A DNA stretch of 50,037 bases from positions 1 through 50,037 of the forward strand of contig JAUCBJ010000218.1 in NCBI GenBank assembly GCA_032718475.1. The letters run 5' to 3'. This document shows, piece by piece, positions 14,801 through 42,155 of the stretch. The notes under the pieces were generated by a model. The model searched no databases, was not told where the DNA came from, and saw only the letters and a list, made by a program, of their open reading frames with translations. Position 1 is the stretch's first letter, and each line of letters opens with the position of its first letter. The translations under genes were made by a program, and so were the position numbers. The DNA is from Nemertoderma westbladi. Taxonomy: Eukaryota; Animalia; Xenacoelomorpha.

Positions 14801-15451
14801 AAAGGCCGGTGCCTGGTATGGGATGCTACATGTGTGGATACCTTTGCCCCATCCCACATCATTCGCTCTGCCATTGAGCCATCCTCAGCATCAGCAGCAG
14901 CGGAGGAGCTAAAGCGTGTGAAATACCGCAATTTGGGTCAGCAGTACCAATTCGAACCCCTGGCCTTCGAGACCACAGGAGTATTCGGTCCATCCACCAT
15001 CAGCGTGTTAAAAGATCTTGGCCGAAGACTCATAGCGGAGTCAGGAGACCCATGCGAGAGCTTGTGGCTGAAGCAACGCATCGGGATAGCCATAGTGAGG
15101 GGGAATGCCCTTTGTGTTCGGGGTTCAATCAGCGCTGTGGAATAGAGTTATTCTCGCCGAGGTAAAGGGAGTAGATCAAAGATTCGTCGAGGTAAAGGGA
15201 GTAGATCAAGGAGTCGTGGAGGAAAGGGGAAGAAGAAAGGAAGATGAAAAGAGAGGAAGATCGAAGGGGTGTGGGAAGAAAGGAGTGGGAAAGTCGATAA
15301 ATAATCAATTCGATGTTGCAGCTGGATGGAAGAAGTTGATGAGAGGAAAATAAACAGTTGGAATGTCATTACAGTACTTTAGGTTAATATGATTGTTTAT
15401 CTTGTCTGTAAATTCAAATATAATTTTTAAGAATATATTACTTCGGTTCGG
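11831..15451 (+). mobile_element. CRE-like non-LTR retrotransposon (RLE type), apparently full length
   Basis: Single long ORF, purine-rich 3' UTR, candidate 13-bp TSD atttttgaacacg at 11818-11830 and 15452-15464. Confidence 0.8.
11885..15145 (+). CDS. Zinc finger + PHD + reverse transcriptase + restriction-like endonuclease, 1086 aa
   Basis: CSVC..HLRRH finger; PHD (CANCSVWYHLSC..WFCGTC); RT motifs SAAGPDG, GGLRPIA, KIDMKNAFNS, GMQQGDP, FLDD; RLE motifs CKCG..GHHALSC, RH, RPDG..WD..EELKRVKY. Confidence 0.93.
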   Translation: MNPFTNPQAGTPGSTQHGGLEGKAPCTTQTQGFNISEDCLIGDVNPVHSTSSTQGIGVQARSRCSVCKKDILVNGNGHLRRHKENSGGPLCPGAGKLADVQCGDYSNSEEKSQSDEQLVGPTCSEGNMRKQIVHCANCSVWYHLSCVGLRKKDSESLPHWFCGTCLDRPRTILPDVDPSYSKYLENLASYIAMLNQSIPVLAKIPKGARIMAADALAPLLKEAIDNPVPITWARLLAFSFGALAKPIPATNDHLQPSLTSKVKQQIRDYMASPCLPNPRVPLHTTHQQHQPSNLDEAELIRKRVSAKFMDGDVRGAVRIITSQEGFADHSEDTINALREKHPPAPLDLDLPPPPDDTLAGPVITTKEDVLASIQSFPLSSAAGPDGLRPGHLRDMVSRGTGAAGDKLLSELTRLANTAHRGETPKFAVPIFFGACLCALNKKGGGLRPIAVGNTFRRLVTKTGIKPLSEVLGAELRPTQLGYGTKGGCEAAVHATRQYINGTKEQKVVLKIDMKNAFNSMRRDVFLKAARDRLPSIYPLVWQAYSTPTVLIFGDHIESATGMQQGDPSGPLLFAVGEEPVTKLVGSELNIWFLDDGTVGGTTESVLSDVVAIIPELAKIGLIVNDAKCELILLNHTPEAATETIHKFSQLLPNIRVLNKVDQVLLGAPLTRDAIEPAIQSKLKSLEVMVDRLVHFDAHQGFTLLKNCLAVPRLQYTLRTSPTFNNTGDLQEFDTVVQDALSSITNVNFHAKSSTQGSLPVSLGGLGIRKLEDLALPSYISSLHSTDILVNSVLSNTFGLEPSCDLAGAVKAWREKFSSVEEPSGAARNNQKAWDTISATITQRDLFAKADQVETARLAAAAQVESGLWLHASPIPSLGSNLDPEALRIGIAQRVGAPICHKHTCKCGKEVDILGHHALSCRNSMGRFPRHAALNNVLKRSLSRAGLPSVLEPTGLDRGDGKRPDGMTIYPYSKGRCLVWDATCVDTFAPSHIIRSAIEPSSASAAAEELKRVKYRNLGQQYQFEPLAFETTGVFGPSTISVLKDLGRRLIAESGDPCESLWLKQRIGIAIVRGNALCVRGSISAVE

Positions 15452-15955: not shown

Positions 15956-17146
15956 TTGTTTCCGTGCAAAATCTGTTCAAACTCACTAATACAAGGAAAA
16001 CAACCTGAAAGTCACATTTTTGAAGATGATACAAACAACCAATCACACCATACGCCAGTACTAACCACTTTCTATCTCCATAGGCTAGAAAATATAAATT
16101 ACGATGGCAGGTGGACCAAAACCTTGGGAAGGAAAGCTTACTTATTCAAAAATGCATCAATGAAGCAATTAGATTCCTACAAGAAAGATATTGAAGCCTC
16201 CATACAACCTTTGCTAGAAAACCACAATACTACTGAAGACAACACAATTGATACGGCAGCAGAATCTTTCATAAAGGCTATCTTGACATCTGCCAATAAA
16301 CATATCCCCTATATCACACCAAGAAGAAGAAAGAACTGGAAACCGCAACTATCTAAAAGTAGAAACGCAAGCACCACCAACACCAATAATCGAGAAACGG
16401 TAAACCCTGAAAACAAACTCAAGCAGATGCAGAAAACGAGAGAACTATCCATGCTACAACACAGGATATATCGAGAACAAGTCACTACTCTTACTCAAGC
16501 ATGTTCAACCAGCCCAAACACATTCTGGAACAAACTGAAAGAAAGAGATGCACACAACAGCCACCAAATGTCACCAGGCAATGCAAATAACCTATATGAC
16601 CACTACAAGAATTTCTATAATAACAACAATCGAAGCTTCTCAACTTCTGAACCGCATCCGAAGTTTCAAGCAGTACCTCATCATCAACAAAATAAAGATA
16701 ACCATAATGACTTTAACCTATTGAGTACAGAAGATATAAACGATGCAATTAAAAAACTGAATAAAGGTAAGGCTGCTGATTCAAACAACATCTCTGCGGA
16801 ACACCTATGTTATGGAAACTCCGAATCTATGTGTAATTTTATTGCTTTTCTCTTTAATGAAATGCGAAGCACGGGATACTTCCCAAACCTTATGTGTTTA
16901 GGACTATTGCTCCCACAGTTGAAGAGCTATGATCGACAAAAAAATCAAATGTCAAGTTACAGAGGTATTTCTATTATATCGATACTACTGAAATTGTGGG
17001 AGCACACAGTGGTGAAGGAACTAACATCTATTGACACAAGTTCCCTACAAATGGCATACAAGAAAGGGATGTGCAATGAAACACCATATCTGACAGCTTC
17101 AAAACTGATAGAATGGTTTAACAAGGGCTCATCTCCTTTACACGTA
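15956..17146 (+). pseudogene. 5' half of ORF2 of a 5'-truncated APE-type LINE, interrupted by the Polinton-like element
   Basis: SHHTPV (end of APE), FWNKLK, LNKGKAADSNNISAEHL, SYRGISIISILLKLWE, QMAYKKG. Homology ends at ...SSPLHV. Confidence 0.88.
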
Positions 17147-18095
17147 AGTAGTAGGGTCTTGGCCGGCTCTGCGACAGTTGGACCCAACTGACACCCATTG
17201 GGTGTCATATGACACCCAATTATCACCCTATGGGTGTCATTGGCGCCAGATTGTCTGGGTGACACCTCCCAATTAGGCTAATTAGACCCTAATTGACAGG
17301 TGTCATCAATTAATTAGTACAATTAAACCCTAACATGTGTCCTATTAGGGTTTAATTGATTATCCTAATTAATCAGACTGATTAGCGCCCTGACACACAA
17401 TGGGTCATCAGTGTTGTCCAACTGTCGCAGAGCCGGCTCAAGAGGGTGTCATAAGTGACACCACAGCTCTGTTATTTATTTATATTTAATTTTAATTAAT
17501 TATCTATATTTTATTTACCTTTATTTATTCATATTTAATTTTAAATTAATTATTCATTTGTACTTTATTTTAAATTAATTAATTGTATTACTTTTACTTT
17601 ATACATTGATTTCTATTTTTGATTAATTAGTTTTTATATTACTTACCGCTACTAAATGAGATCATTATTGGAAGCATCTAACCATAGACTTGCAGCCTTA
17701 TTTAGCCCTAGGGTATACAGCTCCCCTACTGGTAACTAATTACTCCAGACAGCTTTACCGTTGACCTTTGACCTTTGACCCCCAATTAGCTTTAACCAAG
17801 CAACAGCTTATTATTAATAGTTGTATCCAAGCGCCCCGCCCCCTCTGTTACACCTACCGGTAGTTGTAATACCGGTATGTTTCTTTTATTCATTAATACC
17901 TATTTATTTTTATTTAATTTTAATTAATTATTTGTATTCTATTCTATTTATTCGTATTTAATTTTAAATTAATTATTCATTTGTACTTTATTTTAAATTA
18001 ATTAATTGTATTAACTTTTACTTTATACATTGATTTCTATTTTAGATTAATTAGTTTTTATATTACCAATGAGATCACTATGACATAATGTCTAT
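17147..18095 (+). repeat. Left terminal inverted repeat (~950 bp)
   Basis: Reverse complement of 31501-32492 apart from a few substitutions and two small duplications in the right copy. Confidence 0.95.
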
Positions 18096-18594
18096 ATTTA
18101 ACTTTATAATTACCTATTGCATCCCCAGCTCACCACATTCCCGGCAACTATCAACTACGTTCATCGGCGGGGGACCCCTCCTCTGCCATCGCTTTTCATT
18201 AGTAGATACAACAGGCAGTGAATCTATACGTATACCCCCCAGGCAAATATAAATGAGCGATCCCGTCTGTTAGCAGTCCCTTCGATGACTCACTAATAAT
18301 CCCATCGCGGCCTTGACTACAGCAAATCCGTATATCGCCCAAGGCTAATGCTCAAGCGGCCCTCCATTGTTCCCACTATAGCCGGCGTCGCTTTGTCCCT
18401 TTCCTATATCCAGGCAGCCCGTATCATAACAATGAAGCGCCACTAATCACGCATTCCTCTCTACTAATCCCTTTCCTTTGCACCAGACCTGCTTCTGTTA
18501 TACAGCCAACTCAACATAATTAGTCGAGATGTCTACGGGGGTTTTCTAATATAGAATCAACACGAGAAGTTGCCTTGGTAACCGCTTTTGCGCG

Positions 18595-18720
18595 AACAGC
18601 CAATCAGCGGGCTTCATTTCTGCTGCTGCGCTCTGATTGGCTCATTTAAGAGACAAGGGCCTCCCCTACTAACCGAATTGCTATTTAATACATCCCCACT
18701 AATATATTACGTCATTATTT
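18595..18720 (+). promoter_or_regulatory. Putative Pol II promoter of the left transcription unit
   Basis: Inverted CCAAT pair (agccaatcag...ctgattggct), TATA-like tatttaat and CRE-like ttacgtca, just inside the left TIR. Confidence 0.45.
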
Positions 18721-18840
18721 CAATTGCAAGTTACGATTAACATCATTTACCATTATTTTGTTTTCGAATTTAATATTATTTATTTAAGAATATTTATTTA
18801 TTATCATCAGTCAACTATCCAGTTGTATAGTTATATTATT

Positions 18841-19855
18841 GTCATTTCGCCTCGTTATCGTTCATCGTCGACAACAAACTTTCCGCGTATCCGCCGCGTA
18901 ATATTTTTCCGATACCATTCCGTTCTATCGGTTGATAAACTCTCTCGTCGTCCACGTCAACCAACTTCCTCACGAACTTCCAAACTTCTGAACTTCATCT
19001 TTCCGTGAATATTTACTAACACCGTAAGTAAAATCTGCCTTCCACCATCTGACGGTACTATTATTGATGCCGGTAGCAAACAATTTACATTTAATGTCTA
19101 CCGGTATAACAGTATTGCAGTAGGCTCATTATTAATTACTGTCAGACTGTGGTGGTACCGATAGCCTAAACCGTGATCGAAGCATTCGATCAATAGGCTT
19201 ACATCCGCCTATCTGCTTACAGTATTTTTTATCTTTTTACAAATATTCATCTTATTTTTCTAGTATCATTTCGCCGCGTTATCGCTCATCGTCGACAACA
19301 AACTTTCCGCGTATTCGTCGCGTAATATTCCAATATTTCTAATTTCAGATACCATTCCGTTCTATCGGTTAATAAATTCTCTCGTTGTCCACGTCAACCA
19401 ACTTCTTCACGAACTTCCAATCTTCTTCTTTCCGTGAATATTTACTAACACCGTAAGTAAAATCTGCCGGTGTCTGTCATTTCGCCGCGTTATCGCTCAT
19501 CGTCGACAACAAACTTTCCGCATATCCGCCGCGTAATATTCCATTATTTCTAATTTCCGATACCATTCCGTTCTATCGGTAAATAAATTCTCTCGTTGTC
19601 CACGTCAACCAACTTCCTCACGAACTTCCAAACTTCTTCTTTCCGTGAATATTTACTAATACCGTAAGTAAAATCTGCCTTCCACCATCTGATGGTACTA
19701 TCGACGCCGCTAGCAAACAATTTACATTTAATGTCTACCGATACAACAGTATTACAGAAGGCTCATTATTAATTACTGTCAGACTGCGGTGGTACCGATA
19801 ACCTAAACCGTGATCGAAGCATTCGATCAATAGGCCTACATCTACCTATCTGCTT
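18841..19855 (+). repeat. Three copies of a ~190-bp unit, each ending in GTAAGT; copies 1 and 3 share a ~190-bp downstream block
   Basis: tcatttcgcc...ttccgtgaatatttactaa(c/t)accGTAAGTaaaatctgcc begins at ~18841, ~19266 and ~19477. Confidence 0.9.
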
Positions 19856-20380
19856 GTCTACCCAACTACCGATACCGCTTCATTCGAGTTAGCCTAGTGC
19901 CACTGTAGTAACGATATAGACCCTACTGAACAACAATGAATACTGCAGTTTTCACTATATATCCTACTGACTAACTGAGTTCTCACACAGCGATTAGCTA
20001 GGCCTATCGTTGATTTCTATTGGTTAACGCTACCGGTACGTCTGACTTCTGGCAGACTTTTCACTAGCACTACTGCATTGACTGACTGTTGACTGCTGTT
20101 TATAGACCCTCTTTCCACGAATAATAACTGCCATCGCTATTGTGTCTTGGCTATCGCCACTATCTAACCGCTGGTACACTAGCACTACTACACTAGATAC
20201 TGCCGACTGTCTGCTTTATGTTTCACTGACTGATTGCTACAATACAGCAATAGGCCTAACTGTACAAACACAGTATTGTTGCCTAGTAACCGATTAATAC
20301 CTACTGTTTTACTTTATTTTTAGCAAGTATACAGTATTTTTTATTTTTATAAATAATCTACATATTTTTCTAGATTCAAG

Positions 20381-23300
20381 ATGCCAAGATCAACCAATAA
20401 AGTCAGCTGCCCCATCTGCGACAAAGAGATGCGGAGTGATCATCTAAAATCTCATATTAAAATTCATTTCGCGCAATATAGATGCGACTGCTGCCCGACT
20501 TGGTCCTTGGAAAAGAAGACACTGGTTGGCCATCTTGTTTCGTGTCCTCAGGGGGGAACAGGATTTAGTTACGTAAACGAGCCAGCCGATTGCCGCTGCG
20601 GGGATTCGCTCACCCTATCATCCTTTACTGAGCATGAATGCTACTCTCGACTTTTTTCGCGGAAACGCAAAACTCCGACTACCTCCCACTCATCCCCCAT
20701 CAACTCTACTCCAGAACAAGTCGGCGGCGGCGGCTCCAATAATGAACCTTCAACTTCACGAGATTCTATTTCCCCAAACAATCCATTTCAACCACCCTCC
20801 AACGGAAGCGCACACGGACGACTGTTTACCTATAACAATGACCTCGCAGAAACAAGACTCGACGCTGAATTAACATTAAACGAAAATTTTCCACACATTC
20901 AAGAACACGTTAGTAGCCATTTACGTAGTGCCATGGGAACTTTTTTAAGAGTCTGGCTTACAATCAATATCGTAATGGAGCGTGAAACCAGCGAGGGATT
21001 TCAAATTGAATCGTTCTGTTTTAAATCTAGCGGTAACAATAATCAAATTCTGAATAATAGCGACTTTAATAACTGGTTTTCCGGCGCCGTCAATCGTATC
21101 GATCAACTGTTAAGCGTGTTTCTCTGCCTCGGCTCGGGTTGGCGCATAATAGCCATCGAGCGAATAACTATTGAGATTGCGCGTTCCCAACGCAACCCCT
21201 ATTTAAAGGGTCAAGGCTTCAATAATTCTAAATTATTATTAAATAAAAAATGTACCGTAAGCGTAGACTGCCCGCTGGGGGAATGCTTTAAATATGCAGT
21301 ATTAGCCGCCGCAAATTATAAGAAAATTGATAGAAAACAAAATAATATTAGTAGAATTTCAACGTTTACTCCTTTCCTAAACATGTTTGATTTTTCCAAT
21401 TTAAGTTTTCCGGTTTAAGTAACTGGTATTCCCCAGTTTCTGAAAGCCAACCCTATATACTGCATAAACCTTCTTTATTGGAGTAATACGGAAGAACTCT
21501 CCATTTTAAGTCAACCAGATAGCGCGCACTGTTCCGGTAAAACTGTACTAAACTTATTATTTATCGAAGCCACAACCAAAAACCCTGCCCACTATGTAGC
21601 TATTACTAACATAGATAGATTAATAAATACTAAAGCTACTTCTACCGGCAACAAGACGCACTGCGAACGCTGTCTCAGAGCCTTTTACACTGACAAATCA
21701 TTGGGAGAACATCGAGAGCGCTGCTATACGGGTAAACGCCAGCTCGAGTATATGCCCGAAAATCTCTTGGTTAAATTTGACAGGTACGATAAGACTCTAT
21801 CCCCACCTTTCTGTATATACGCCGACATTGAAACTATTCTAGAACCTACAAACAATATTAAACTCCCACAGAAACATATAGCTAGCGCGGCAGCCTTTTA
21901 TACAGTACCAAATCAGAAATTAATTAACCCTCCTAAAACAGATGCTCAAATTTTCCGCGACGATGGCAGTAACCACGTAATGCGCGACTTTCTAACCGCT
22001 ATGGAAAGTCATTGTAGGGAGTTATACGATTGGTCCATTTCTAGTACAAACACGCACGTTCCCATGCAACTCACTACTAGCCAACAAACTGACTTTAATA
22101 ACGCTACACAATGCTACGTCTGCAACTGTAATTTAACCCCTGATTCTCATAATTTAAACCTCAATGACAATCTCAGCACCAAAGTCCGCGATCATGATCA
22201 TTATAGCGGGGAGTATCGAGGAGCTGCTTGCGTCAGCTGCAACAGGAAACTTTCCCTAAAACGGAATAATTTTTATATTATATTTCATAACTTGAGGAAA
22301 TTCGATATGCATTTACTACTAAAAGAAGGAATGACCGATAGTTCTAGAACACACTGGAAAATGACTATAATACCAAAAAACACCGAAACTTATATTCACC
22401 TTAAAGTTAGCTTCCCAATCGATCCGAGTACCCCAACAGCCAACACTAAAGAAAGTATCTCCATTAATTTTCTAGATTCCTATCAATTTATGACTGCCAG
22501 CCTAGATAATCTTAGTAGTTATCTCACTAAAAATAATAGTAACCTAGCAACAGCCATACCCCATACACTAGCTCAAATGACCCAACTCTATCCCAACATT
22601 AGCGATAACACAATAAAAAACAAGGGTGTATTCCCATATTCCTACATTCAAAATATTTCAAACCTACACGAAACTACACTCCCCCCAATAGAAAGCTTCT
22701 ATAATGATCTCAAAATGGAACAATGTAGCGCAGAAAACTATCAGCGCGCGCTTACTACTTGGGATGAATTAAACTGCGCAACAATCTTCGACTATATGAT
22801 TGGCTATTTGGTTCTAGACGTTACCCTATTGGCTGATACTTTCGAGCAGTTCCGATCCCTCTGTCTTACTAATTATGGACTCGAGCCCGTAATGTACTTC
22901 ACTGCCCCTGGATTAACTTACGACGCGGCGCTGAAATTCACGCAATCAGAAATTCAATTACTATCAGACGCTTCCATCTACTCGGACTTTGAAACAAATA
23001 TTAGGGGTGGTCTAGTATTCTTGAATACACATTCCGTAGACGCAAATATTCCCGATAAACCCGACTATGACTCCAGTCTCCCCGAGAAATATCTAATTCC
23101 CATCGATGCGAATAACCTTTACGGCTGCGCCCTGAGCCAGAAACTTCCCTACGCTAATATTAAACTCGTAACTACCCCCATAGACCTAGCTACAGTAGAT
23201 GCAAGCGGGGACACTGGTTATTATTGCATAGTTGATCTACATTACCCGAATGAAATTCATGATTTGACCGCCGATCTGCCTCTAGGAGCGGAGAAGATGT

Positions 23301-24433
23301 CAGTCCCTAAATCCTTTCTTAGCGAATACATGGAAGATCTTTGGGAGCATTACAATCTCACCGATACGGCTACCTGTAGACCATACAACGATACCTGTAC
23401 TAAGCTACTACTACATCAGTTTAATAAGGTTGAATACGGTATCCATATTAAGCTACTTCAGCTCTATTTGAAGCTCGGTCTTAAACTTACACAAGTTCAC
23501 AGGGTCTACTCTTTTTCACAAAAATATATTTTCAAGGACTACATTAGTTTTAATACGAATAAAAGACAGTCGGCAAATAACCCATTCGAGGTCCTATTTT
23601 ATAAGTTGATGAACTATGCATTATATGGGAAATGCCTCCAAAAGGTTAGAGACCGCGTTTCTTTCAGGTTATGCAATAGCGACGAACAATGCGATTTGCT
23701 CTTAGCCAAGCCCAACCACGAATCGTTTGTTGTCTTTACCCCCAACTTGAGTGGTCATACTTTCACTAAAGAGGCTGTTTGCCTAAATCAGGGCGTGTTC
23801 ATCGGTTGCACTATACTAGATCTATCTAAGCTACAGATGTACGACCTATTTTACAACAAACTGAAGCCTCTAGAACAAAAACTGGGTTGCCAGATTCGCT
23901 GTCTAGCCGGTGACACGGATTCTCTAATGCTAAGCGTAACTAATACACCACAGCTAACCTTTCTACGGGCAATGTTTGAGGGTGGTTTCCTAGATACTTC
24001 CAACTACAGTACAACACATCCACTCTATACCATTAAACACAAAGCGGCTCTCGGCTTCATAAAAGATGAGAGCTGCGGTTTGCAGTATAAACAGTGGGTT
24101 TTCCTTAAACCAAAGGTCTACAGTTTTCAATCCTACGATGCCCCAATCAAGAAAACCGCCAAAGGTGTATCTAGATCGGTTGTCGCTAAGCAACTAACAC
24201 ACGAGGATTATGCAGACTGTTTTGAAAACGAGGCAATGCTCTTCCGCTATAACTCTACCCTCACTTCTAGAAAGCATCAAATTTTTACTGGTCATGTCTA
24301 TAAGAAGGCACTAACGCTCTGGGATACGAAATCATATTGGAGTAGTAAATATAGCAGCAAACCATACGGACACTATAGCACTAAGCTTGTTAGACCGGCG
24401 AAACGAGTAGTAATCCCCCCTACTAGAATTTAA
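20381..24433 (+). pseudogene. Protein-primed family B DNA polymerase with N-terminal C2H2 finger and EndoVII-like insertion, ~1350 codons, one in-frame TAA at 21416-21418
   Basis: Track ORFs 20381-21418 and 21701-24433 share a frame and 21419-21700 is open (VTGIPQFLKAN...HYVAITNIDRL..CERCL). Motifs YADIE, FHNLRKFD, FLDS, KGVFPY, LDVTLLAD, DANNLYG, KLMNYALYGK, GDTDS, PKVY; RDHDHYSGEYRGAACVSCN. Confidence 0.95.
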
Positions 24434-24447
24434 TTTAATTTTTCTAG

Positions 24448-24963
24448 AATAAGAAATTGAACAACAAAATAGAAATAACCAATAAACAGTTTACCGGAAA
24501 AAACATTGCCAAATTTGAACTAGATAAAATTTCACAGCAAATTATAGGTCAAAGTTGCTTAAAACCAAACATGTTTATCTACAAAGGTGACGATTCAACT
24601 TTAATGCTATTTCCCAGCGGCGCAGTAACAATTGTAAGCCTTTGCAATAATTTAGCTAGTGAATTGCTTTATTTAAAACAAACTATCGGGATGCAATTAC
24701 AAAATTTGAAACTTAATACCGAAACACGAACTATTATTTTTCCAAGTGTTAATTTTAAATTATTAATGAAAAAATGTGGACATCATACAATTAATAATAA
24801 AGCAATATTTATTAGCTATACCCCCGAATTATTTTGTGCGATTAGAATATATATAGGATGTGCATATTTCAGTGTATTTCATAGTAATAAAATCGTTTCC
24901 ATGTGTCCAGCCGGTGAATTCCCTGAATCATTATCTATTTTACAAACTTTATTATTAAATTAG
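24448..24963 (+). CDS. Divergent TATA-binding-protein (TBP)-like protein, ~170 aa, no 5' ATG (possibly spliced)
   Basis: Two-repeat layout and size of the TBP core. STLMLFPSGAVTI resembles TTALIFSSGKMVC; ISYTPELFCAIRI..FSVFHSNKIV resembles SYEPELFPGLIY..LIFVSGKVV. Preceded by tttttctag. Confidence 0.65.
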   Translation, partial: NKKLNNKIEITNKQFTGKNIAKFELDKISQQIIGQSCLKPNMFIYKGDDSTLMLFPSGAVTIVSLCNNLASELLYLKQTIGMQLQNLKLNTETRTIIFPSVNFKLLMKKCGHHTINNKAIFISYTPELFCAIRIYIGCAYFSVFHSNKIVSMCPAGEFPESLSILQTLLLN

Positions 24964-27501
24964 TTTATTTACTATGGTATACATGAAAGTTTACTATATT
25001 ATTTATTTTGTGTTGGTTTTTATTTTTCCGTGAGTAGGGTTTGAATCCGTGACCATCCGTGTTACCTACTTTTTATAATTGCATTAGTAGGACTCGAACC
25101 CTGGTTTTTCCTATTTTGTGTTGGATTTATAATGGACGCGAGTAGGGATTGAACCCGTGACCTTCTGTTTTTCCTAATTTATGTTTAGTTTAGTTACTCT
25201 AGTTATTCTATGTTTACTTTTTATATTTTCATGATTAGGATTCAAACCCTGGTTTAACTTATTTCGTGTTGGATTTATAATGGTCGCGAGTAGGGATTGA
25301 ACCTATGACCTCCTGTTTATTTTCCATAAAACGGGATACGAGTAGGGATTGAGCCCGTGACCTTCTGTTTTTCCTATTTTATGTTTAGTTTAGGTACTCT
25401 AGTTATTCTATGTTTAACTTATTTTGTGTTGGTTTTATATTGGTCGCGAGTAGGGATTGAACCCGTGACCATCTGTTTATCCTATTTTGTGTTTACTTTT
25501 TATATTTTTCTATAAAACGGGATACGAGAAGGGGTCGAACATGTGACCACCTGTTTATCCTATTTTATGTTTAGTTTAGGTACTCTAGTTATTCTATGTT
25601 TAACTTATTTTGTGTTGGTTTTATATTGGTCGCGAGTAGGGATTGAACCCGTAACAATCTGTTTATCATATTTTGTGTTTAGTTTAGTTACTCTAGTTAT
25701 TCTATGTTTACTTTTTATATTTTCATGATTAGGATTCGAACCCTGGTTTAACTTATTTCGTGTTGGATTTATAATGGTCGCGAGTAGGGATTGAACCTAT
25801 GACCTCCTGTTTATTTTCCATAAAACGGGATACGAGTAGGGATTGAGCCCGTGACCTTCTGTTTTTCCTATTTTGTGTTTAGTTTAGGTACTCTAGTTAT
25901 TCTATGTTTACTTTTTATATTTTTTTCATAAAACGGACACGAGTAGGGATTGAACCTACAGTATGACCATCTGTTTATCCTATTTTATGTTTAGTTTAGT
26001 TACTCTATGTTAAAGTGAATTTTCACATTATATTTGTGTTAAATTATAAATTTATGTTACAATTATTATTTATATTATAAAAAACAGTTAAAGTAAATTT
26101 TCATATTATATTTATGTTAAATTATAAATTTATGTTACAATTATTATTTATATTATAAAAAACAGAAATATTCGAGTTATATTGCATTATATATTTTACA
26201 TTGAAGTGGATTACTTTAGATGTTGGGGGGATCTGGTTTGCGAGGGATATTTGAATGGTGAGTATAACTATCCTTGAGAGTTAGTGTGACGTTATCTCAC
26301 CATGGATGGGCTTTACCACTGTACTCGCATCTGCTCCCTCATTGGCTGCTCGATGCCTCAGATTAAGGGTCTAAGGCCTTCAAGCTGGTCATTTGCTTAG
26401 TTCTCTAATTGGCGGGATGTGAGTTTGGACCCTAGAAGAGCATTATTCTTTTTCCTAGCTCTTGGATAACTCTAGCATACACTCTAGCTTTGACTCTCCC
26501 GGCTATAGTTATAGTATGCAACCTTGGGAGTTAATGTGAGTACATATTTCAGTGTATTTCATAGTAATAAAATCGTTTCCATGTGTCCTACCGGTGAATT
26601 CCCCGGATCATTATCTATTTTACAAACTATATTATTAAATTAGTTTATTTACTATGGTATACATGAAAGTTTACTATATTATTTATTTTGTGTTGGTTTT
26701 TATTTTTCCCTGAGTAGGGTTTGAATCCGTGAGCATCCGTGTTACCTACTTTTTATAATTGCATTAGTAGGACTCGAACCCTGGTTTAACTTATTTTGGG
26801 TTGGTTTTATAATGGACGCGAGTAGGGATTGAACCCGTGACCTCCTGTTTATTTTCCATAAAACGGGATACGACTAGGGATCGAACCTGTGACCATCTGT
26901 TTATTCTATTTTGTGTTTAGTTTAGGTACTCTAGTTATTCTATGTTTAACTTATTTTGTGTTGGTTTTATATTGGTCGCGAGTAGGGATTGAACCCGTGA
27001 CCATCTGTTTATCCTATTTTGTGTTTAGTTTAGTTACTCTATGTTAAAGTGAATTTTCATATTATATTTATGTTAAATTATAAATTTATGCTACAATTAT
27101 TATTTATATTATAAAAACAGAAATATTCGAGTTATATTGCATTATATATTTTACATTGAAGTGGATTACTTTAGATGTTGGGGGGAATCTGGTTTGCGAG
27201 GGATATTTGAACGGTGAGTATAACTATCCTTGAGAGCTAGTGCAACGCTACCTCACTATGGATGGGCTTTACCACTGTACTCGCATCTGCTCTCTCATTG
27301 GCTGCTCGATGCCTCCGATTAAGGGTCTAAGGTCTTCAAGCTGGTCATTTGCTTAGTTCTCTAATTGGAGGGATGTGAGTTTGGACCCTAGAAGAGCATT
27401 ATTCTTTTTCCTAGCTCTTGGATAACTCTAGCATACACTCTAGCTTTGACTCTCCCGCCGGCTATAGTTATAGTATGCAACCTTGGGAGTTAATGTGAGT
27501 A
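24863..27501. repeat. Tandem segmental duplication (24863-26542; shorter copy 26543-27501) containing B-box-like repeat arrays
   Basis: The last ~100 bp of the TBP-like ORF recur at 26543. Block ~26000-26542 recurs at ~27030-27501. gagtagggattgaacccgtgacc variants occur throughout. Confidence 0.9.
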
Positions 27502-29436
27502 AAGACCAAGAGATTAGACTTCAGGCTCCCTCTATTGGTTCATTCTTCTTAACTTTATAAAATAACTCAACCCGTATTTAAAGTTTTAAAAATTATGACT
27601 TAGTCGACTAATTTTCCAAAGTATATTATAAAAACATATAATTTCTTGAATAAATAGACCTAATAGTAATAAATAATGTGGGGGTAAATACATTTATAAT
27701 TCTAATATAATTATTAAGGATAAATAGTCCTAATACTAATATAATTATGTAATAGTAAGCAAAATTTTTATGCGCAACCATCAGAGATTATTTGGATATA
27801 AAAGATCACACAGCAGGAGGCTAACTTGCTGGGATCGACAAAGGCTTTGTGTGCGGTGTGTCGCTATGTCTTATATCGGGTGGATGAGAGAGCCCCCTCC
27901 GGCGCAACATTGTGAACATGGGCTATATTGCTAGAGAGAGAACTACATATAAGACCATGGCCGGCCCTCATGCAAATTTAGCGGCGCCAAGGCTAACGGG
28001 GCACCTCGAAGACAGTCTGGCTATAGTAGAGTAGAATGGATATACGAGTCCATAGCTAAAATATATCTGCCATGGAGCCTTCGCGTAGCACTATGCTCAC
28101 CAAATATATTTATAATTCTCTATCCGCGAAATTTTCAGAAATTTTAAATTTTTGCCGTCGCTTCGCGGAAAAAATAAAAAGTAAACACAAAATAGGATAT
28201 ACAGATTCTCACAGATTCGATTCCCTATCCCCGACCAGGGTCATTATGACCCTCCCCGGTGTTTGTACAACATTTTATAGCCCGGTAGTATTATGATTAA
28301 AGCTACTAATCTAAAACATAACAAGTGCAATTATCCTATCTGTTCCAACTCAGTCTCACTACTTTAGATAATATACTATAATAATAGTAATAGCAGCTGC
28401 TTTTAATTTCGCGATGAAATATTGTCAGCAAACGAAATATAGCGAATACATCATAGATAGAATTTTAAATTTTGCAGTCGCATGGAGTGATAACCCTTAG
28501 GTGAAAGCTAAATTTGCTCTACTTTAATCAAATGGGGCATTAAAGCTATGAGTATATTTTCCTCTACATCCTCCCTCGATCTTACGCAAATCTGGGTAAA
28601 AGGCAGTTGAAGGGCTATCATTCCCATCATATGCGGTCCTCCCTTTAATGTTTCATTGTTCTATTCATAGTCGCCTTTAAGAATTTCTCGGGAAAATAAG
28701 GATGAGGGGCTATCACTATCAACCCATGCGGCCCTCCCTTTCATGATTTCATTGAACTATCCATAGTACGAACAATCAAACCAAAGCCTTTGAATATCCT
28801 CGCGGCTTATCAGCGGCGCCATGGCTAACGGCTTAATATTAACAGTGAAGCATCTAAAAGACAGAGTGTCTATGATAGGGCAGAACAGTATACTTACAGC
28901 CTAGAGGTGGTCGCCCTGAAAACTTTGCTCGCCATCAATACATACAAAGCATCGCTTGATGGAAAGAGTAATAGGGTGGATATTTTCATTTTGGTGAATA
29001 TAATTTATAGCATTAATCACAAAAACGCTAAATAATGTATTTTAAATAAATTCAACTCTGATAAACAACTTGCATATCGAGTTTGTAAAGAATTCATAGG
29101 GATTGGCTGTTTATTTAGGGGTTAACATTCAAATTGATTACGAAGAAGCAGTAGGGGTCATTAATGGTATGCTGAGACTCACTTATTTCATGGCTCGCTC
29201 TCATAGTATAGATTAACTAGTAGAGAAAAATGAAAAATAAGTGGTTAAACATCTTATATTTTTTAAACATTATGGGGAAACAAGAATAAATAATTTACCG
29301 ACAACATCAATATTAAATAATATAACAACAACAGATAAATAATTTACCAACAACATTAATAATAAATAATATAAGAACATCAACAATAACAAAAGATATA
29401 GTCAGAACAGTTTTCAATAAATAGAGACTGTTTATA

Positions 29437-31146
29437 TTAATAGGGTTGCTGGCCTCCGAGAATAACTGGTTTAACCCTTTTAGGGTCCGATACTATTAAT
29501 GGTTGAGATAATTTTCTCTTTAATAGATTGTTGAGATAGCCTTTTCTTGGGGGGTGAAATAGATTAAGGTGTGTTTGCTGTGGGAGAAAGATGCCTTCTC
29601 TGAGAGAACGTTTTAGTAATTCGAAAAGGCGCGCGATGGTAAAGTCGTTGGACAGGGTGATAGTGTTGGTATTTTTCGTATTGGTGAATATAATTTCTGT
29701 TGGTTTGTTCTCGATATGAATGTAAGGACTGAGATAGTAGTGAGAGTTGGGTGGGTTGGTTATATTTATCGTGAGAAAATCGCTGCCCCTAATATTGAGA
29801 CCGTTGATGAACTGAAAAGTGGTATTCTCTTCGTCTTTCATTAAAATGGGCCAGATACCAACATATTTTTCGGATTTGAACTTATAGATAAAGGCTGCGA
29901 TACTGCTATTTATGAGATAGCGCTGGTGATTGGGGATCGTAATCTGCTTCGGTTTGAAAGCAAATTGTATAGCCATAGCCTTGAATCTGATTAGAGCCTC
30001 GCGCGCTTGAATCGTGTTAGCTATAGTAAAGGATTCGTTAAATTTTCTCTCGGTTATCTGTAAATCAATTTCTGAATCACTGATACAACTTTGTATCGAT
30101 ATTCGCTCGGAAATGTTGTCTTTGTATACGTTAAGTTCATCGTAGCAGACACATTCACTATCCTCGATGGTTGAATCGAACCATTTCAATTCGCCGACCT
30201 CGGTTGGTGTAAGAAGAATCATGCCCCTAGAAGAAACAATAGCCTTTCCATCGTCAACCTCGTAGCCATTGGTGATCGCTAAATTGCGCTCGTTCCGAAT
30301 ATTTGTAACAAACCCAAAAGTGCAATAGTCAAAAGCAACCCAATTTCCCGGTTTTAGGACAAGGTGAGTAGTAGGATTAATAAAAGGGCGACAGATGTTT
30401 ACATATTGTTGAAATAAATTGGCGCAGGTGACGGAAAATGTGATCCATGAACTGTTTACAGTGTCTTCCAGCTTTATTAACTCGAGTGGATTCACTGGGT
30501 TAATACTTCCATAGGTGCCAACTCTATAATTGATTCCAAAGTAATAGGAGACTTTATTGGCAAAAAAGCATGTGAGCTCATTCAATTTCTCGCCGAAAGT
30601 GAGAACATCCTTATCGAAAAGTTTAAAGAAACGAGTCTCCTCTTCCTCGGTCGGAGTCGACGAGTTCCAGATGAGAAGAAGAATCGAGTTTGCGATACTA
30701 TGAAAATCAAATAAGCGATCATCGGAGAAGAAGGAGGTTACGAGAGTGGTTAAACCCAGTAGACGATTTGCCACATCTTGGTTGATGTTTTCTCGAATAA
30801 AATCGACTATACTAGTTGGAATCGTAAACGTTTCGGGCGAAGTAGTTAGATTGAACGTTATTTTGTTGTCCCTTTTTAAAAGTTTGAAACCGTGGTTGGA
30901 GGAATGAAGTTTGTTATCATCGAGGGTTTGATATTGTCCATCGTGAAGTTCGTAGCAGGCGCGGAAAATAAAGTGCGCGTAGTTTGCCGGAATCGGGATG
31001 GGTTGGTTTAAGGTTGTATTTATCGTTAACGGGAAGAGTTTGTTCGCCGGATCGAAATATAGACCAAACGAGTTGTCTTGTAGCATAAACTGATTTTCGT
31101 TGCAAACCAGATCGTTGATTGAATAGCTGATTTCTGAATGTGCCAT
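29437..31146 (-). CDS. Uncharacterised 569-aa protein, possible divergent PC4-like ssDNA-binding repeats, basic NLS-like C-terminus
   Basis: Intact ATG-initiated ORF convergent with polB; non-repetitive protein-like composition; KRK..PKRVK at the C-terminus. The PC4 resemblance is by eye only. Confidence 0.75.
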   Translation of the reverse strand: MAHSEISYSINDLVCNENQFMLQDNSFGLYFDPANKLFPLTINTTLNQPIPIPANYAHFIFRACYELHDGQYQTLDDNKLHSSNHGFKLLKRDNKITFNLTTSPETFTIPTSIVDFIRENINQDVANRLLGLTTLVTSFFSDDRLFDFHSIANSILLLIWNSSTPTEEEETRFFKLFDKDVLTFGEKLNELTCFFANKVSYYFGINYRVGTYGSINPVNPLELIKLEDTVNSSWITFSVTCANLFQQYVNICRPFINPTTHLVLKPGNWVAFDYCTFGFVTNIRNERNLAITNGYEVDDGKAIVSSRGMILLTPTEVGELKWFDSTIEDSECVCYDELNVYKDNISERISIQSCISDSEIDLQITERKFNESFTIANTIQAREALIRFKAMAIQFAFKPKQITIPNHQRYLINSSIAAFIYKFKSEKYVGIWPILMKDEENTTFQFINGLNIRGSDFLTINITNPPNSHYYLSPYIHIENKPTEIIFTNTKNTNTITLSNDFTIARLFELLKRSLREGIFLPQQTHLNLFHPPRKGYLNNLLKRKLSQPLIVSDPKRVKPVILGGQQPY

Positions 31147-31259
31147 TGTGATTGTGTACCGGTAACTCGTTTAGGAAATAAAAATAAATAAATACTTTTA
31201 CGAAAATAATTAAAACTTTTCAGGAAAACAAAGAGACAATGATTGGGAATGTGGTGAAC

Positions 31260-31395
31260 GGGGGCTATTATAGAGGGGGCTAGAATGGGTTAGCCAATCA
31301 GGGAACAGGAGGGAGAAAAGACTGTATAATTAAACCAATCAGAGAGCAGCTTTGATGACGTCACATCAGGCGAGATAATGATTGCCCAATGTTAT
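31260..31395 (-). promoter_or_regulatory. Putative promoter of the 569-aa ORF
   Basis: CCAAT boxes at ~31294, ~31335 and ~31386; perfect CRE TGACGTCA at 31356-31363; TATAAT-like site at ~31267-31272, ~120 bp upstream of the ATG. Confidence 0.5.
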
Positions 31396-31500
31396 TCAAT
31401 GGTAGGCAGAGTGGCGCCATTGAATAACGAAGACAAAGGGGCCGCGAGAGGAAAGATTATAAAGTTAACGATAAGGGATCTATAAACCATAGAGCTAAAA

Positions 31501-32492
31501 ATAGACATTATGTCATAGTGATCTCATTGGTAATATAAAAACTAATTAATCTAAAATAGAAATCAATGTATAAAGTAAAAGTTAATACAATTAATTAATT
31601 TAAAATAAAGTACAAATGAATAATTAATTTAAAATTAAATACGAATAAATAGAATAGAATACAAATAATTAATTAAAATTAAATAAAAATAAATAGGTAT
31701 TAATGAATAAAAGAAACATACCGGTATTACAACTATCGGTGGGTGTAACATACCGGTATTACAACTACCGGTAGGTGTAACAGAGGGGGCGGGGCGCTTG
31801 GATACAACTATTATTAATAGGCTGTTGCTTGGTTAAAGCTAATTGGGGGTCAAAGGTCAAAGGTCAACGATAAAGCTGTCTGGAGTAATTAGTTACCAGT
31901 AGGGGAGCTGTATACCCTAGGGCTAAATAAGGCTGCAAGTCTATGGTTAGATGCTTCCAATAATGATCTCATTTAGTAGCGGTAAGTAATATAAAAACTA
32001 ATTAATCTAAAAATAGAAATCAATGTATAAAGTAAAAGTAATACAATTAATTAATTTAAAATAAAGTACAAATGAATAATTAATTTAAAATTAAATATGA
32101 ATAAATAAAGGTAAATAAAATATAGATAATTAATTAAAATTAAATATAAATAAATAACAGAGCTGTGGTGTCACTTATGACACCCTCTTGAGCCGGCTCT
32201 GCGACAGTTGGACAACACTGATGACCCATTGTGTGTCAGGGCGCTAATCAGTCTGATTAATTAGGATAATCAATTAAACCCTAATAGGACACATGTTAGG
32301 GTTTAATTGTACTAATTAATTGATGACACCTGTCAATTAGGGTCTAATTAGCCTAATTGGGAGGTGTCACCCAGACAGTCTGGCGCCAATGACACCCAAT
32401 GACACCCATAGGGTGATAATTGGGTGTCATATGACACCCAATGGGTGTCAGTTGGGTCCAACTGTCGCAGAGCCGGCCAAGACCCTACTACT
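31501..32492 (-). repeat. Right terminal inverted repeat (~990 bp)
   Basis: atagacattatgtcatagtgatctcattgg...gccggccaagaccctactact mirrors the left end. Confidence 0.95.
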
Positions 32493-32498
32493 CACGTA

Positions 32499-33689
32499 GT
32501 ATCTTTAGACCTAACATCAGCATTCGACTGCATCAACCATGAAATCCTGTTCGACAAATTGTCCAAGACCAACCTGTCTCCTAGTTTAATTATCCTAATA
32601 CAATCATACTATGATAAGTCCACTGCTATTGTACAGATCGGCAACTATAGACATAAGGAAGCTATAGCATTATCCCGAGGGGTACGTCAAGGTGGAATAT
32701 TATCAGCCTGGATGTTCAATTTTTTCTTGACAGACTTATTTACCACTTTAGAAACAGAACACCTAGGTCCACATATAGGATCCCAGGCATACCCGGCAAT
32801 CGGGTTTGCAGACGACATTCTCTTAATGGCAAACCTGAAAACAGACATTCAGAGAATAATGCAAATCTGCGTTAACTTTTTCCAAGACACACAGCTAACA
32901 CTGAACACCAGAAAATGCCATTATATAGTTTGCACTCCATCAGGAAAAAATACACTTGAATCACTCCAGATAGAATCTGGAAAATATATTATTCAAGAAG
33001 AAAAATTATCATACCTTGGCCTACCATTGCCATCTACAGGGAGAAACCTACACAATCATCTAACCAAGAAATGCTGGATCAACGTGTCAAAAGCAAAGCT
33101 CAGAGGATTATCTGCCCATGATGTACCACTGAACATTTCTTCTTTCATCTGGAAAACCATCTGTTTACCATCTATAATGTACGGTGCCTCAAATCTTGAC
33201 AAGCATTTCTTTGAACAAATGAAAATTACACTTCAGAAGGCAATGAGATCACTCCTTGGCGTTGGAAGCTATATACCGAACAACGTCCTAATGGACCTTT
33301 ATGACAGCCAATCTTTTGAACAAATGATGACCTTTTCAAAATGCTGCGCAATCTATAACCTGTTCAACTGCAACAACGATAAAGTTACACATCTGTTTAC
33401 AACCATTTTAACACATCATGTCGCAAAAACCTATCATGATAATCTGATGGATGATTACAACCTTTTATCGTGGCAAGAAGGTCTCCCGACACTCACTAGT
33501 ATTGCTACCTCACAATACTGTGTGAAGAAGGTGTTAAAAGGAGCAAAGGTCAGAACTAAAGCTGGAAACATCCCCCTAACCTTCAAAGAAAAGTTTCATA
33601 GCTCTTATTTCCGATCAATCCTAAACAACTGCAATAATGACCATACATCCAAACATACTACAATATTATCGTTCTTTGGGCTAGACTAA
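32499..33689 (+). pseudogene. 3' half of the same LINE ORF2 (RT core to C-terminus)
   Basis: VSLDLTSAFD, GVRQGGILS, FADD, YLG. In frame with the 5' half once the insert and one TSD copy are removed. (AT)n tail at ~33775-33789. Confidence 0.9.
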
Positions 33690-37725: not shown

Positions 37726-37773
37726 TTGTAGGACCATCAATTATTTCACTTTACTTATAATGTTGACTCTTAA

Positions 37774-39927
37774 CCTTATTAGTACCGGGCTATAAAATGT
37801 TGTACAAATACCGGGGGAGTCATATTGACCCCTCCCTCTAAAATTTTCAAATTTTTACGAAAACGTCTGATATTTTATTTGTACGTAGATATCACTAGTC
37901 TGGATCCGACCGAAAAAAAAATTTTCAAAAAAATGTACTGGGGTGGTTATATTGCAGCACCAAAATTACAAGTAGTGCACAATTTTCACAAAATTTGAAA
38001 GTTACATTTTTCGGCTAATTGTTTTTCAATACAGGTTTTCTGGGGCGCAAAATACATTGGAAAATATTTAAAAATGATATGATTACTATAAATGGCTGTT
38101 TAGTCCTCTCTGCGTAGGAAAAAATGAAAAAAACAAGTAACCAGCAATTTTCAGTTAGAACACAACATTTTTAATTCACTTATACGATTCTATAATTTCA
38201 CATTTTCAGGTTTTCTAGGGCGCTGATTCTAATGGAATACATTTCTAATATGCCAGATCAATGCTACTTGTATTTTTCGGCGTAATTTGGCAAATTTTGG
38301 TACTGGCACCAAATTTCGTACCCATAACCAAAAAGTACAAGTTTGAGATGTCCAGTGCTGTTTTTATTGATTCCATCGGATTCAGGACCCTCATAAACCC
38401 GTATAACGCTAGAAACAAGATGATACTATCTACTGATCAATTTGCTTATTTTATTTAAATTTGGTGCTGGCACAACAATTTTCACCCACCGGCGAAAAAT
38501 ACAAGTTTGAAAACTCTTATGAAAATTTTCTGATTCCATTGAATTCAGAACCTTCACAAACCCGTAAAACAAGGTGACACAATCAATTGATATATTTCAT
38601 GGTTTTCAAAATTTGGTGCTAGCTTCACATTTTGCACCCACTTCCGAAAAATACAAGTTTGAGATGTCTAGTTCGATAATTATATATTCCATTGAATTCA
38701 GAACAGCTATAAACCTCTAAACCGCAAGAAATAAATTGTCACAAGCAATTTTATTTATTGAATGGATTTTCAAATTTTTCGTGCTAGCACCAAAATTTGC
38801 ACACAGCACCGAAAAATACAAATTTGATACGCATATTAAATTTGATACGTATATATTCCATCGAAACCAGAACCCCAAAAAACCCCGCTTGCGTAAATAA
38901 CAAGTTTCAAACAATCAATTTACAAAGTTGACATATTTCAAAATTTGGTGCTGGCACCAAAATTTGGCACCTGCCTAAAAAAACAAGTTTGACATTTCTA
39001 AATTAATTTATATGAATTCCATCCAATTGCTAACACCAAAAAACCGGTGTAAATCAAAAATAGAGATGTTACAAATCATATTTAATGAAATGTAATTTTC
39101 AAAAAACGTCACAAATAAAGTGCCAAAATGTTAGCGAATTCAATTCCGCTAACCACCCCATAAAGTTGGGAAAGCGGTGCCTTTAAGCAATATTGGGGAG
39201 TACGAGGTTGATTGCCAATCAACCTCGTATCACCCCAATAAACGGGGACGACAAGCCCCAAAGGGCCGCACACAATGGGGGTCAGAGGTTACACCTCCGG
39301 GAGAGGGAAAGTGACAGTAGCGGGGGGGGGGGGGGGGGGGGAAACACTCCCAGAGAGACGGGAGGCGAGAATTAGGTTACTAGCCAATGGGGGGCAAGCA
39401 TCCGCTGAGTAATAGGGCCAACCTAGTGCAGTATATTACCTGTTGATGTATCTCATTTGTTCAGTTAGCTTACTCAGTTCAGTTAGGGCAGAACGGTAAC
39501 TTTTATTACCGTCGCCGCCACCATCACCAATTATATTACCGGTATCTGCATTATACATCCTTCAACTGTGCTTTGTGCTTTACTCCTCTATATTTCATAT
39601 ATACATATCATATACTACAGTACATATCAGTTAATAACATCAGAACTCTTTCAATCTAACAACAAACTCTTTCACACGGCGGGGACGCGTAAATAAAACA
39701 ACCGGTCGGGATTCTCGGATCCCGTCACACAAAAGTAGGGTTAAAAAATGGTGCTATAACTAGAAAACTACCCAATATTTTTGAAAACGGTTTTCACTAC
39801 TAGGAAGACAATAGATCTTTAGGAAAAGTCATAAAATATCAGATTCCCAACTGCGTTTGTTTCAGAATTATAACAAAAAAACCGCGGAGGGTAGTCATAT
39901 TGATCCCCTCCCCCGGGTTTAATAGGG
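37774..39927. mobile_element. Non-autonomous piggyBac-like element
   Basis: TTAA|ccttattagtaccggg ... cccgggtttaataggg|TTAA (12/16 TIR match), subterminal gtcatattga(c/t)ccc at both ends, degenerate internal repeats. An extra right end lies at 40033-40053. Confidence 0.65.
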
Positions 39928-40145
39928 TTAAGTTGTCAATGGCATGTAATGCATACCAGGACAGGCCCAATATTTCCAATTGGTGTTTTGTTTCAGCCTA
40001 TGGAAGTAATTTCTGGGCTTCTAATTGGCTGCCCCCGGGTTTAATAGGGTTAAAAGCCATTTTCATATAAAAAAAACATAATAAAAAAATACGTCAAAAA
40101 GTGGGTACCCTTAACATTTACCCATTTAAGAAGTTTCTGACATTA

Positions 40146-42155
40146 ACGGGCGGAATTATGAACAAAATGTAGCCACGGGCGCAACTATATGAACAAAATG
40201 TAGCCACGGGCGGAACTATATGAACAAAATGTAGCCATGAGCGGAACTATAAGAACAAAATGTAGCCATGGGCGGAACTATATGAACAAAATGTAGCCAC
40301 GGGCGGAACTATATGAACAAAATGTAGCCACGGGCGGAACTATAAGAACAAAATGTAGCCAGGGGCGGAACTATAAGAACAAAATGTAGCCACGGGCGGA
40401 ACTATAAGAACAAAATGTAGCCACTGGCGTAACTATAAGAACCAAATGTAGCCATGGGCGGAACTATAAGAACAAAATGTAGCCACGGGCGGAACTATAA
40501 GAACAAAATGTAGCCACAGGCGGAACTATAAGAACAAAATGTAGCCACGGGCGGAACTATAAGAACAAAATGTAGCCATGGGCAGAACTATAAGAACAAA
40601 ATGTAGCCACGGGTGGAACTATAAGAACAAAATGTAACCACGGGCGGAACTATAAGAACAAAATGTAGCCACGGGTGGAACTATAAGAACAAAATGTAGC
40701 CACGGGCGGAACTATAAGAACAAAATATAGCCACAGGCGGAACTATAAGAACAAAATGTAGCTACGGGCGGAACCATAAGAACAAAATGTAGCCGTGGGC
40801 GGAACTATAAGAACAAAATGTAGCCACGGGCAGAACTATGTGAACAAAATGTAGCCACGGGTGGAACTATAAAAATAAAATGTAGCTACGGGCGGAACTA
40901 TAAGAACTTAATGTAGCCACGGGCGGAACTATAAGAACAAAATGTAGCCACAGGCAGAACTATAATAGCAAAATGTAGCCACGGGCGGAACTATAATAAC
41001 AAAATGTAGCCACGGGCAGAACTATAAGAACAAAATGTAGCCACGGGCGGAACTATATCAACAAAATGTAGCCACGGGCGGAACTATAAGAACAAAATGT
41101 AGCCACGGGGGGAACTATAAGAACAAAATGTAGCCACGGGCGGAACTATAAGAACAAAATGTAGCCAGGGGCGGAACTATATCAACAAAATGTAGCCACG
41201 GGCGGAACTATAGGAACAAATTGTAGCCACGGGTGGAACTATGTGAACAAAATGTAGCCACGGGCGGAACTATAAGAACAAAATGTAGCCACGGGCGGAA
41301 CTATAAGAACAAAATGTAGCCACAGGCGGAACTATAAGAACAAAATGTAGCCACGGGCGGAACTATAAGAACAAAATGTAGCCACGGGCGGAACTATAAG
41401 AACAAAATGTAGCCACGGGTGGAACTATAAGAACAAAATGTAACCACGGGCGGAACTATAAGAACAAAATGTAGCCACGGGCGGAACTATAAAAACAAAA
41501 TGTAGCCACGGGCGGAACTATAAGAACAAAATGTAGCCACGGGCGGAACTATAAGAACAAAATATAGCCACGGGCAGAACTATAAGAACAAAATATAGCC
41601 ACGGGCGGAACTATAAGAACAAAATGTAGCTATGGGCGGGACCATAAGAACAAAATGTAGCCGTGGGCGGAACTATAAGAACAAAATGTAGCCACGGATG
41701 GAACTATGTGAACAAAATGTAGCCACGGGCGGAACTATAAAAACGAAATTTAGCTACGGGCGGAACTATAAGAACTTAATGTAGCCACGGGCGGAACTAT
41801 AAGAACAAAATGTAGCCACGGGTGGAAGTATAATAGCAAAATGTAGCCACGGGCGGAACTATATCAATAAAATGTAGCCACGGGCGGAACTATAAGAACA
41901 AAATGTAGCCACGGGGGGAACTATAAGAACAAAATGTAGCCACGGGCGGAACTATAAGTACAACATGTAGCCACGGTCGGAATTATAAGAACAATATGTA
42001 GCCGCGGGTGGAACTATAAGAACAAAATGTAGCCACAGGCGGAACTATATGACCAATTGTTATATTTTTATATAATGATTTTAGATATTTCTTAAATGTA
42101 GCCACGGGCGGAATTATTGAACACAATGTAGCCACGGGCGGAACTATATGAACAA
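40146..42155. repeat. 31-bp tandem satellite, ~60 copies
   Basis: Unit gaacaaaatgtagccacgggcggaactataa, head to tail with no spacers. Confidence 0.97.

Follow-up and report, generated by a model that had tools for sequence, protein, structure and literature searches.

The 569-aa ORF P0001 is an intact, real orphan gene of a three-gene element of the Polinton/Maverick type, which lies within the window (the whole 50,037-nucleotide stretch of Nemertoderma westbladi DNA that was analysed). We tentatively infer that its product may be a nuclear DNA-binding accessory protein, and the element is apparently a helper-dependent Polinton derivative. The original prediction had proposed tandem PC4-like ssDNA-binding domains for P0001. 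That it adopts a PC4-like fold, or acts as a PC4-like SSB, is in our judgement rather doubtful.

The element and its insertion site

The element starts with AGTAGTAGGG and terminates with CCCTACTACT (Table 1). Its TIRs, of about 980-1020 bp, are identical at 965 of 975 aligned bases, with 47 gap positions, and the LINE ORF that it interrupts reads on in a single frame from its left to its right part when the element and one TSD copy are left out of account. Long TIRs and a 6-bp TSD are typical of Polintons, as stated in the accessible part of PMC3014272, and with these ends, this TSD and its pPolB gene the segment 17147-32492 is a Polinton/Maverick-type element. Such ends and TSD do not resemble an ambisense ssDNA virus genome, the kind of genome that the original prediction had tied to a capsid fold. 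Among the duplications inside the element, 24860-25170 and 26540-26850 are alike at 95.5%, so that the 3′ end of the TBP-like gene is present twice. In addition, a 63-bp piece at 28238-28300 inside the element matches host DNA at 37770-37831 (87%), with a very high contig depth, and is probably a fragment of another repeat.

The Raf-type kinase and the LINEs of the window suggest an animal host. In the flanking host DNA, an uninterrupted 781-aa Raf-type kinase ORF with RBD, C1 and kinase domains (7109-9454, plus strand) is either a single-exon gene or a retrocopy. An intact 1086-aa ORF with PHD and reverse transcriptase (11885-15145, plus strand) and a 560-aa ORF with PHD and AP-endonuclease (873-2555, minus strand) are, by their predicted domains, non-LTR retrotransposons with PHD fingers, and a satellite of 31-bp units, in at least 60 copies, extends over about 40033-42000.

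Table 1. Features of the element, of its insertion site and of P0001 (positions in the window)
Feature	Position	Strand	Remarks
Host LINE ORF before the insertion	15956..17146	plus	
6-bp TSD, left copy	17141..17146	plus	CACGTA
Whole element	17147..32492		15,346 bp; AGTAGT...ACTACT ends
Left TIR	17147..18125	plus	
Duplications of about 210 bp	18840..19855		non-coding
pPolB gene, N-terminal part	20381..21418	plus	zinc fingers; ends at in-frame stop
pPolB gene, part after the in-frame stop	21419..24433	plus	
TBP-like ORF	24448..24963	plus	no ATG at start
AT-rich degenerate duplications	24860..27501		contain the TBP-like 3′ end again
P0001, orphan ORF	29437..31146	minus	569 aa; ATG to TAA
P0001 regions (low-confidence secondary structure)			beta-rich 1-125, helical 126-257, beta-rich 258-525, basic tail
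Basic clusters, P0001 residues 542-558	29473..29523	minus	candidate nuclear localisation signal
Strongest-looking PC4-like stretch, P0001 residues 415-456	29779..29904	minus	not significant
Second PC4-like stretch, P0001 residues 278-319	30190..30315	minus	not significant
Right TIR	31475..32492	minus	
6-bp TSD, right copy	32493..32498	plus	CACGTA
Host LINE ORF (reverse transcriptase) after the insertion	32493..33689	plus	in frame with left part

The element retains pPolB and a TBP-like gene

The pPolB gene (20381-24433) encodes exonuclease and polymerase motifs together with an endonuclease VII-like insert, and 323 relatives were collected at E <= 1e-5, the best at 39%. It carries an in-frame stop at 21416-21418, a spot at which the contigs of other copies differ. 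The part up to this stop (20381-21418) matches the N-terminal region of the relatives' uninterrupted pPolB ORFs, and since these ORFs are continuous over it, the stop is a break in this copy. A quick tree built from 40 polymerases joined the window's pPolB to P0003 (SH-aLRT 95), inside a group of 19 rows to which L017, L018 and L024 belong, the loci of this group including complete Polintons. L001, a virophage-type contig with a Sputnik-like MCP, has a pPolB that is 31% identical to that of the window.

TBP-like genes that pass the Pfam TBP cut-off were found in four of the 81 related loci fetched via the polymerase alignment (L017:14573-15139, L018:4701-5207, L024:8900-9502 and L069:9084-9743); an integrase is present in all four and an MCP-cluster ORF in three. 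The window's TBP-like ORF gave no match by word search or in PDB, and it is far more diverged than the four relatives (19-24% identity), but it matched their TBP profile at E 1.7e-11. The context given for P0001 at the outset, a pPolB element with a TBP-like neighbour, is thus confirmed, and the neighbour is genuine. The same TTTTTCTAG, which resembles a splice acceptor, stands directly 5′ of the pPolB start (20365-20373) and of the TBP-like ORF (24439-24447), and the frame of the latter opens immediately 3′ of its AG; judging from this motif, transcripts of both genes may receive a leader from further upstream by splicing.

When the element was searched in six frames with 17 family profiles, with stops read as X, only pPolB, TBP and a zinc finger were matched (next-best match, E 0.026). 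By this search no integrase, ATPase, protease or capsid gene, and no visible remnant of one, was detected in this copy. In the accessible part of PMC4028283 the genes named as conserved in Polintons are those for pPolB, RVE integrase, ATPase and protease, and nine Polintons without MCP, protease and ATPase are counted; by the definition given in PMC5499653 every Polinton encodes an integrase. In the portion of PMC8502044 that is available, the legend of a figure dealing with MELD viruses carries a TBP-like gene label, and the available portion of 10.1101/2023.08.22.554363 reports an HNH domain in pPolB2 and does not mention PC4. The main texts of PMC11071308, PMC11071296 and 10.64898/2026.10.13.758929 mention neither PC4 nor SSB, and the accessible parts of PMC11131425, 10.1101/2025.02.07.637071 and PMC6431247 do not describe such an element. 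Literature on Polintons and PC4 yielded only an unrelated use of the term 'PC4', and supplementary data could include Polinton genes of the PC4-like or TBP-like kind. Judged by titles and the beginnings of abstracts, in a partial coverage of the literature, no integrase-less Polinton family that retains pPolB was found. Short non-autonomous Polintons have already been described.

P0001 is an intact ORF for which no homologue was found

The predicted 569-aa ORF is present on the minus strand, with the plus strand across 29437-31146 closed to translation, and at the base composition of the element a run of 569 codons would stay free of stops with a probability of 3e-17. P0001 is net acidic over residues 1-398 (pI 4.7-5.1), the basic part comprising 399-569 only, and no transmembrane segment was detected (top 19-residue hydropathy, 0.96). 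The basic C-terminal tail of the original prediction was recovered as residues 526-569, with a net charge of +7 and a pI of 10.7 and with the clusters KRKLS (542-546) and PKRVK (554-558). The interval 5′ of P0001 (31147-31490) contains a CRE-like palindrome, TGACGTCA, at -217, a TATAA at -126 and four CCAAT boxes, all scored without a chance control, and a polyadenylation signal, likewise without a control run, lies downstream.

No credible homologue of P0001 was found in any library searched. There was no relative among 7119 candidates of 312-996 aa, no match in IMG/VR or among PDB sequences, nothing in the ESM Atlas with the whole protein or with residues 398-525, nothing credible in phage records (best E 0.05) or PHROGs (best E 0.089), and no similar ORF in the 81 related Polinton loci. 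The lone match among 1.84 billion representatives was a bacterial-type PKD-repeat protein, whose score came from six weak repeats, and it was rejected. As far as these searches reach, P0001 deserves the label orphan that it had been given. No usable structure model of P0001 was obtained: AlphaFold2 without an alignment gave a pLDDT of 30.7 for whole P0001 and 32.2 for residues 259-525, and Foldseek matches of these low-pLDDT models, with TM below 0.2, carry no information on the fold.

The resemblance of P0001 to PC4 is at chance level

All three stretches that had been said to echo PC4 are present in P0001, the third being residues 58-70 (nt 30937-30975). Their resemblance to PC4, however, did not exceed chance by profile, glocal scan or hhalign, and that of 58-70 is unsupported. 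Pfam PF02229 matched neither whole P0001 nor three segments of it. A PC4 profile was then built from 57 PC4-family sequences, all from bacteria and T5-like phages and none eukaryotic, with L132, L147 and L185 (open frames, wrong orientation), as well as L149 and L161-L164, excluded. The best P0001 domain found with it scored -2.5 bits at residues 418-430, and full shuffles of P0001 equalled this score 175 times in 2000, local ones 165 times in 2000; in the glocal scan, 51 of 150 shuffles scored equally well. With hhalign, residues 400-466 came top of eight segments, at a probability of 1.4% and a pairwise E of 0.037. No viral contig matched in a scan for the PC4 motif. Of 1718 ORFs, a motif regex picked out just P0001 and one of L010, and this match was not counted as evidence because the regex had been composed after P0001 was seen.

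By eye, three pairs of beta-beta-beta-helix units (1-125, 258-398 and 400-525) can be laid around a helical linker, an arrangement that we treat as a lead only. Internal repetition was not significant (of 15 pairs of units, the highest z was 2.8; at the level of tandems, z was at most 1.2), and MAFFT did not reproduce the register set by eye. Sequence comparison is a weak test of a PC4-like fold: in a sensitivity check the PC4 protein of phage T5 (T5.115), which has a solved PC4-like structure, reached a PC4 chain of eukaryotic origin at no better than E 1.4, and PC4-like domains mostly lack sequence similarity, according to the accessible text of PMC7549692. For this reason the PC4 idea is not refuted by the tests on P0001.

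Three ORFs of the related Polintons, L063:4237-4668, L069:8792-9565 and L010:5534-6052, are small, have a PC4-like look and are good candidates for putative Polinton SSBs. The L063 ORF, which adjoins pPolB, matched Pfam PC4 at E 0.07 and PC4 by hhalign at E 0.0036 over 55 columns, ranked third of 1718 ORFs with the 57-sequence profile, and has a short hairpin pattern in common with P0001 418-430 (z about 2). Those of L069 and L010 are small two-unit ORFs that are mutually related (z 8.3), and a scan gave no further relatives of them. Their PC4 likeness was not established by Pfam or hhalign, the measured weak match being that of L063 only.

Other copies of the element

Contigs bearing P0001 were taken from four DNA runs (X1-X4) of three studies, X1 and X2 being from one sample, and one of these runs may be the source of the window itself. 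The interval 27520-31480 was matched by 1385, 1083, 532 and 34 contigs in the four runs, and 19860-24850 by 1551, 1339, 621 and 34; no contig spans all of either interval. Coverage of the pPolB/TBP stretch and of the P0001 stretch was 30/30 bins in X1-X3 and 23/30 in X4, where uncovered parts were not taken as absence, just as contig depth was not taken as copy number. The contigs on 27520-31480 range from over 99% to under 90% alike, and we take them to represent a family of many copies, some young and some older. Other copies may carry extra genes in 17147-19859 and 24851-27519, beside the two intervals compared. In X1 and X4 there are contigs that join 21214 to 24441; some copies therefore lack most of pPolB, and further deletion derivatives exist.

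The selection signal is weaker for P0001 than for pPolB. In pPolB 18 of 28 substitutions were synonymous (P 4e-5; among 40 listed of 269), and in P0001 9 of 18, against 5.5 expected (P 0.066; among 40 listed of 189). A single indel of the 12 listed (of 24) on the P0001 stretch fell inside the ORF, and it kept the frame (P 0.011). Gaps and deletions inside P0001 were seen in low-depth divergent contigs.

Discussion

Several other readings of P0001 have to be weighed against that of an accessory protein. P0001 could well be cargo peculiar to its lineage, or a protein of host interaction, with a different fold, such as a transcriptional regulator or a counter-silencing factor: the accessory genes of the relatives are diverse (KilA-N, RING, dNK, PLA2-like), P0001 is unmatched in all 81 loci, and it is mostly acidic, with PC4 tests at chance. 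Nothing, however, points positively to any named family, and the other genes that the element retained serve replication and transcription only. The relatives' profiles tested on P0001 (integrase, 15 sequences; protease, 7; MCP, 9; two minor-capsid-like families, 4 and 5; accessory, 3; ATPase, 12) were all at chance, equalled by 28 to 500 of 500 shuffles, with hhalign at most 0.34%. A highly derived virion protein, that is, a major or minor jelly-roll capsid protein of a satellite virus, is improbable. P0001 would suit it in being beta-rich, 569 aa long and basic at its C-terminus, and some relatives have ORFs of ~530 aa opposite to the pPolB strand, but the MCP profile and those of two families of ~300-530 aa, which we take to be minor-capsid-like, were equalled by 176, 114 and 196 of 500 shuffles, so that the capsid fold named as the alternative in the original prediction is not supported. 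Among the nine MCP sequences of the relatives, one matched Pfam Capsid_N at E 0.0073. In addition, the element is without a packaging ATPase or protease, and the 130-aa helical middle of P0001 (in a low-confidence secondary structure) is unlike a jelly roll.

The 6-bp TSD needs a maker, and with the integrase gene absent P0001 might act as an integrase or transposase that has escaped recognition, and the element would then be autonomous; D272, D335 and E365 form a possible DDE-like set by eye, with an atypical spacing. Pfam rve, however, did not match P0001, and the 15-sequence Polinton integrase profile found no domain in it (hhalign 0.13%), so that we give this reading very little credence. 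Nor is it probable that P0001 is a non-functional passenger, intact only through the youth of the family. The TIRs are 99% identical, decayed copies exist among the contigs, and the synonymous excess of P0001 falls short of significance, all of which a passenger would accommodate, but 569 open codons are not attributable to chance, the listed indels avoid the ORF, and CCAAT and CRE-like motifs upstream and a polyadenylation signal downstream, for which no control was run, accompany it.

Our preferred, if tentative, reading remains that of a nuclear accessory protein, P0001 being assigned to the nuclear phase because the element kept only replication and transcription genes. An integrase supplied by a complete Polinton elsewhere in the genome would excise and integrate the element in trans, the element would amplify by protein-primed strand-displacement synthesis, and P0001 would aid either copying by the polymerase or transcription by the TBP-like protein. 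The most likely single mechanism that can be named, although itself doubtful, is that P0001 would shield the displaced strand by means of repeated beta-sheet-plus-helix (PC4/PUR-like) units. It counts against an accessory role that no homologue, domain or usable fold backs any function of P0001; its acidic residues 1-398, the PC4 tests at chance, the weaker selection signal, the gaps and deletions in divergent contigs and the lack of a match in the 81 loci weigh in the same direction.

A single-strand-binding protein is required for protein-primed strand displacement in adenovirus and phi29. None was found to be named for Polintons in the literature searched, and the three-gene element narrows the SSB candidates to one expressible protein. 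That the element is a multi-copy, three-gene satellite Polinton without integrase and virion genes, whose equipment for self-replication and transcription comprises pPolB, a TBP-like factor and an SSB built as one chain from up to six PC4/PUR-like units, is unlikely; if true, a satellite Polinton would amplify itself on a borrowed integrase, and a candidate single-strand-binding protein for Polinton replication would be at hand. An integrase-less Polinton family with pPolB under purifying selection would represent a helper-dependent lifestyle between virus and non-autonomous transposon. If P0001 proves to be cargo, it would be an ordinary orphan in a deleted Polinton.

Two P0001 stretches echo by eye the hairpin and strand-helix signature of the PC4 family (PF02229; eukaryotic PC4, T5.115 = 4BG7, YdbC), and T5.115 shares with P0001 a replication context, but PC4 proteins are dimerising proteins of ~70-130 aa, whereas P0001 has 569 aa and no significant PC4 match. 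In the accessible text of PMC7549692 the PC4-like fold consists of beta4-alpha units with swapped helices, as a dimer or in tandem. The Type I tandem domains described there (Pur-alpha, Whirly, MRP1/2) have several beta-beta-beta-helix units per chain, and a potential intramolecular pairing of this kind can be drawn by eye in P0001, although its repeats are statistically undetectable (z <=2.8). The small ORFs of L063, L069 and L010 are not significantly similar to P0001 (in the best of 12 comparisons, 15 and 9 of 500 shuffles did as well; hhalign 0.5%), yet they lie beside TBP-like or pPolB genes and show by eye a P0001-like pattern of units. The element differs from typical Polintons in having no RVE integrase, ATPase, protease or major or minor capsid gene and a large orphan gene instead, whereas it has in common with Polintons/Mavericks (Polintoviricetes, adintoviruses) the long TIRs, the 6-bp TSD and the 15-kb size (accessible parts of PMC3014272 and PMC4028283), a pPolB with an HNH/endonuclease VII-like insert and, with four of the related loci, a TBP-like gene.
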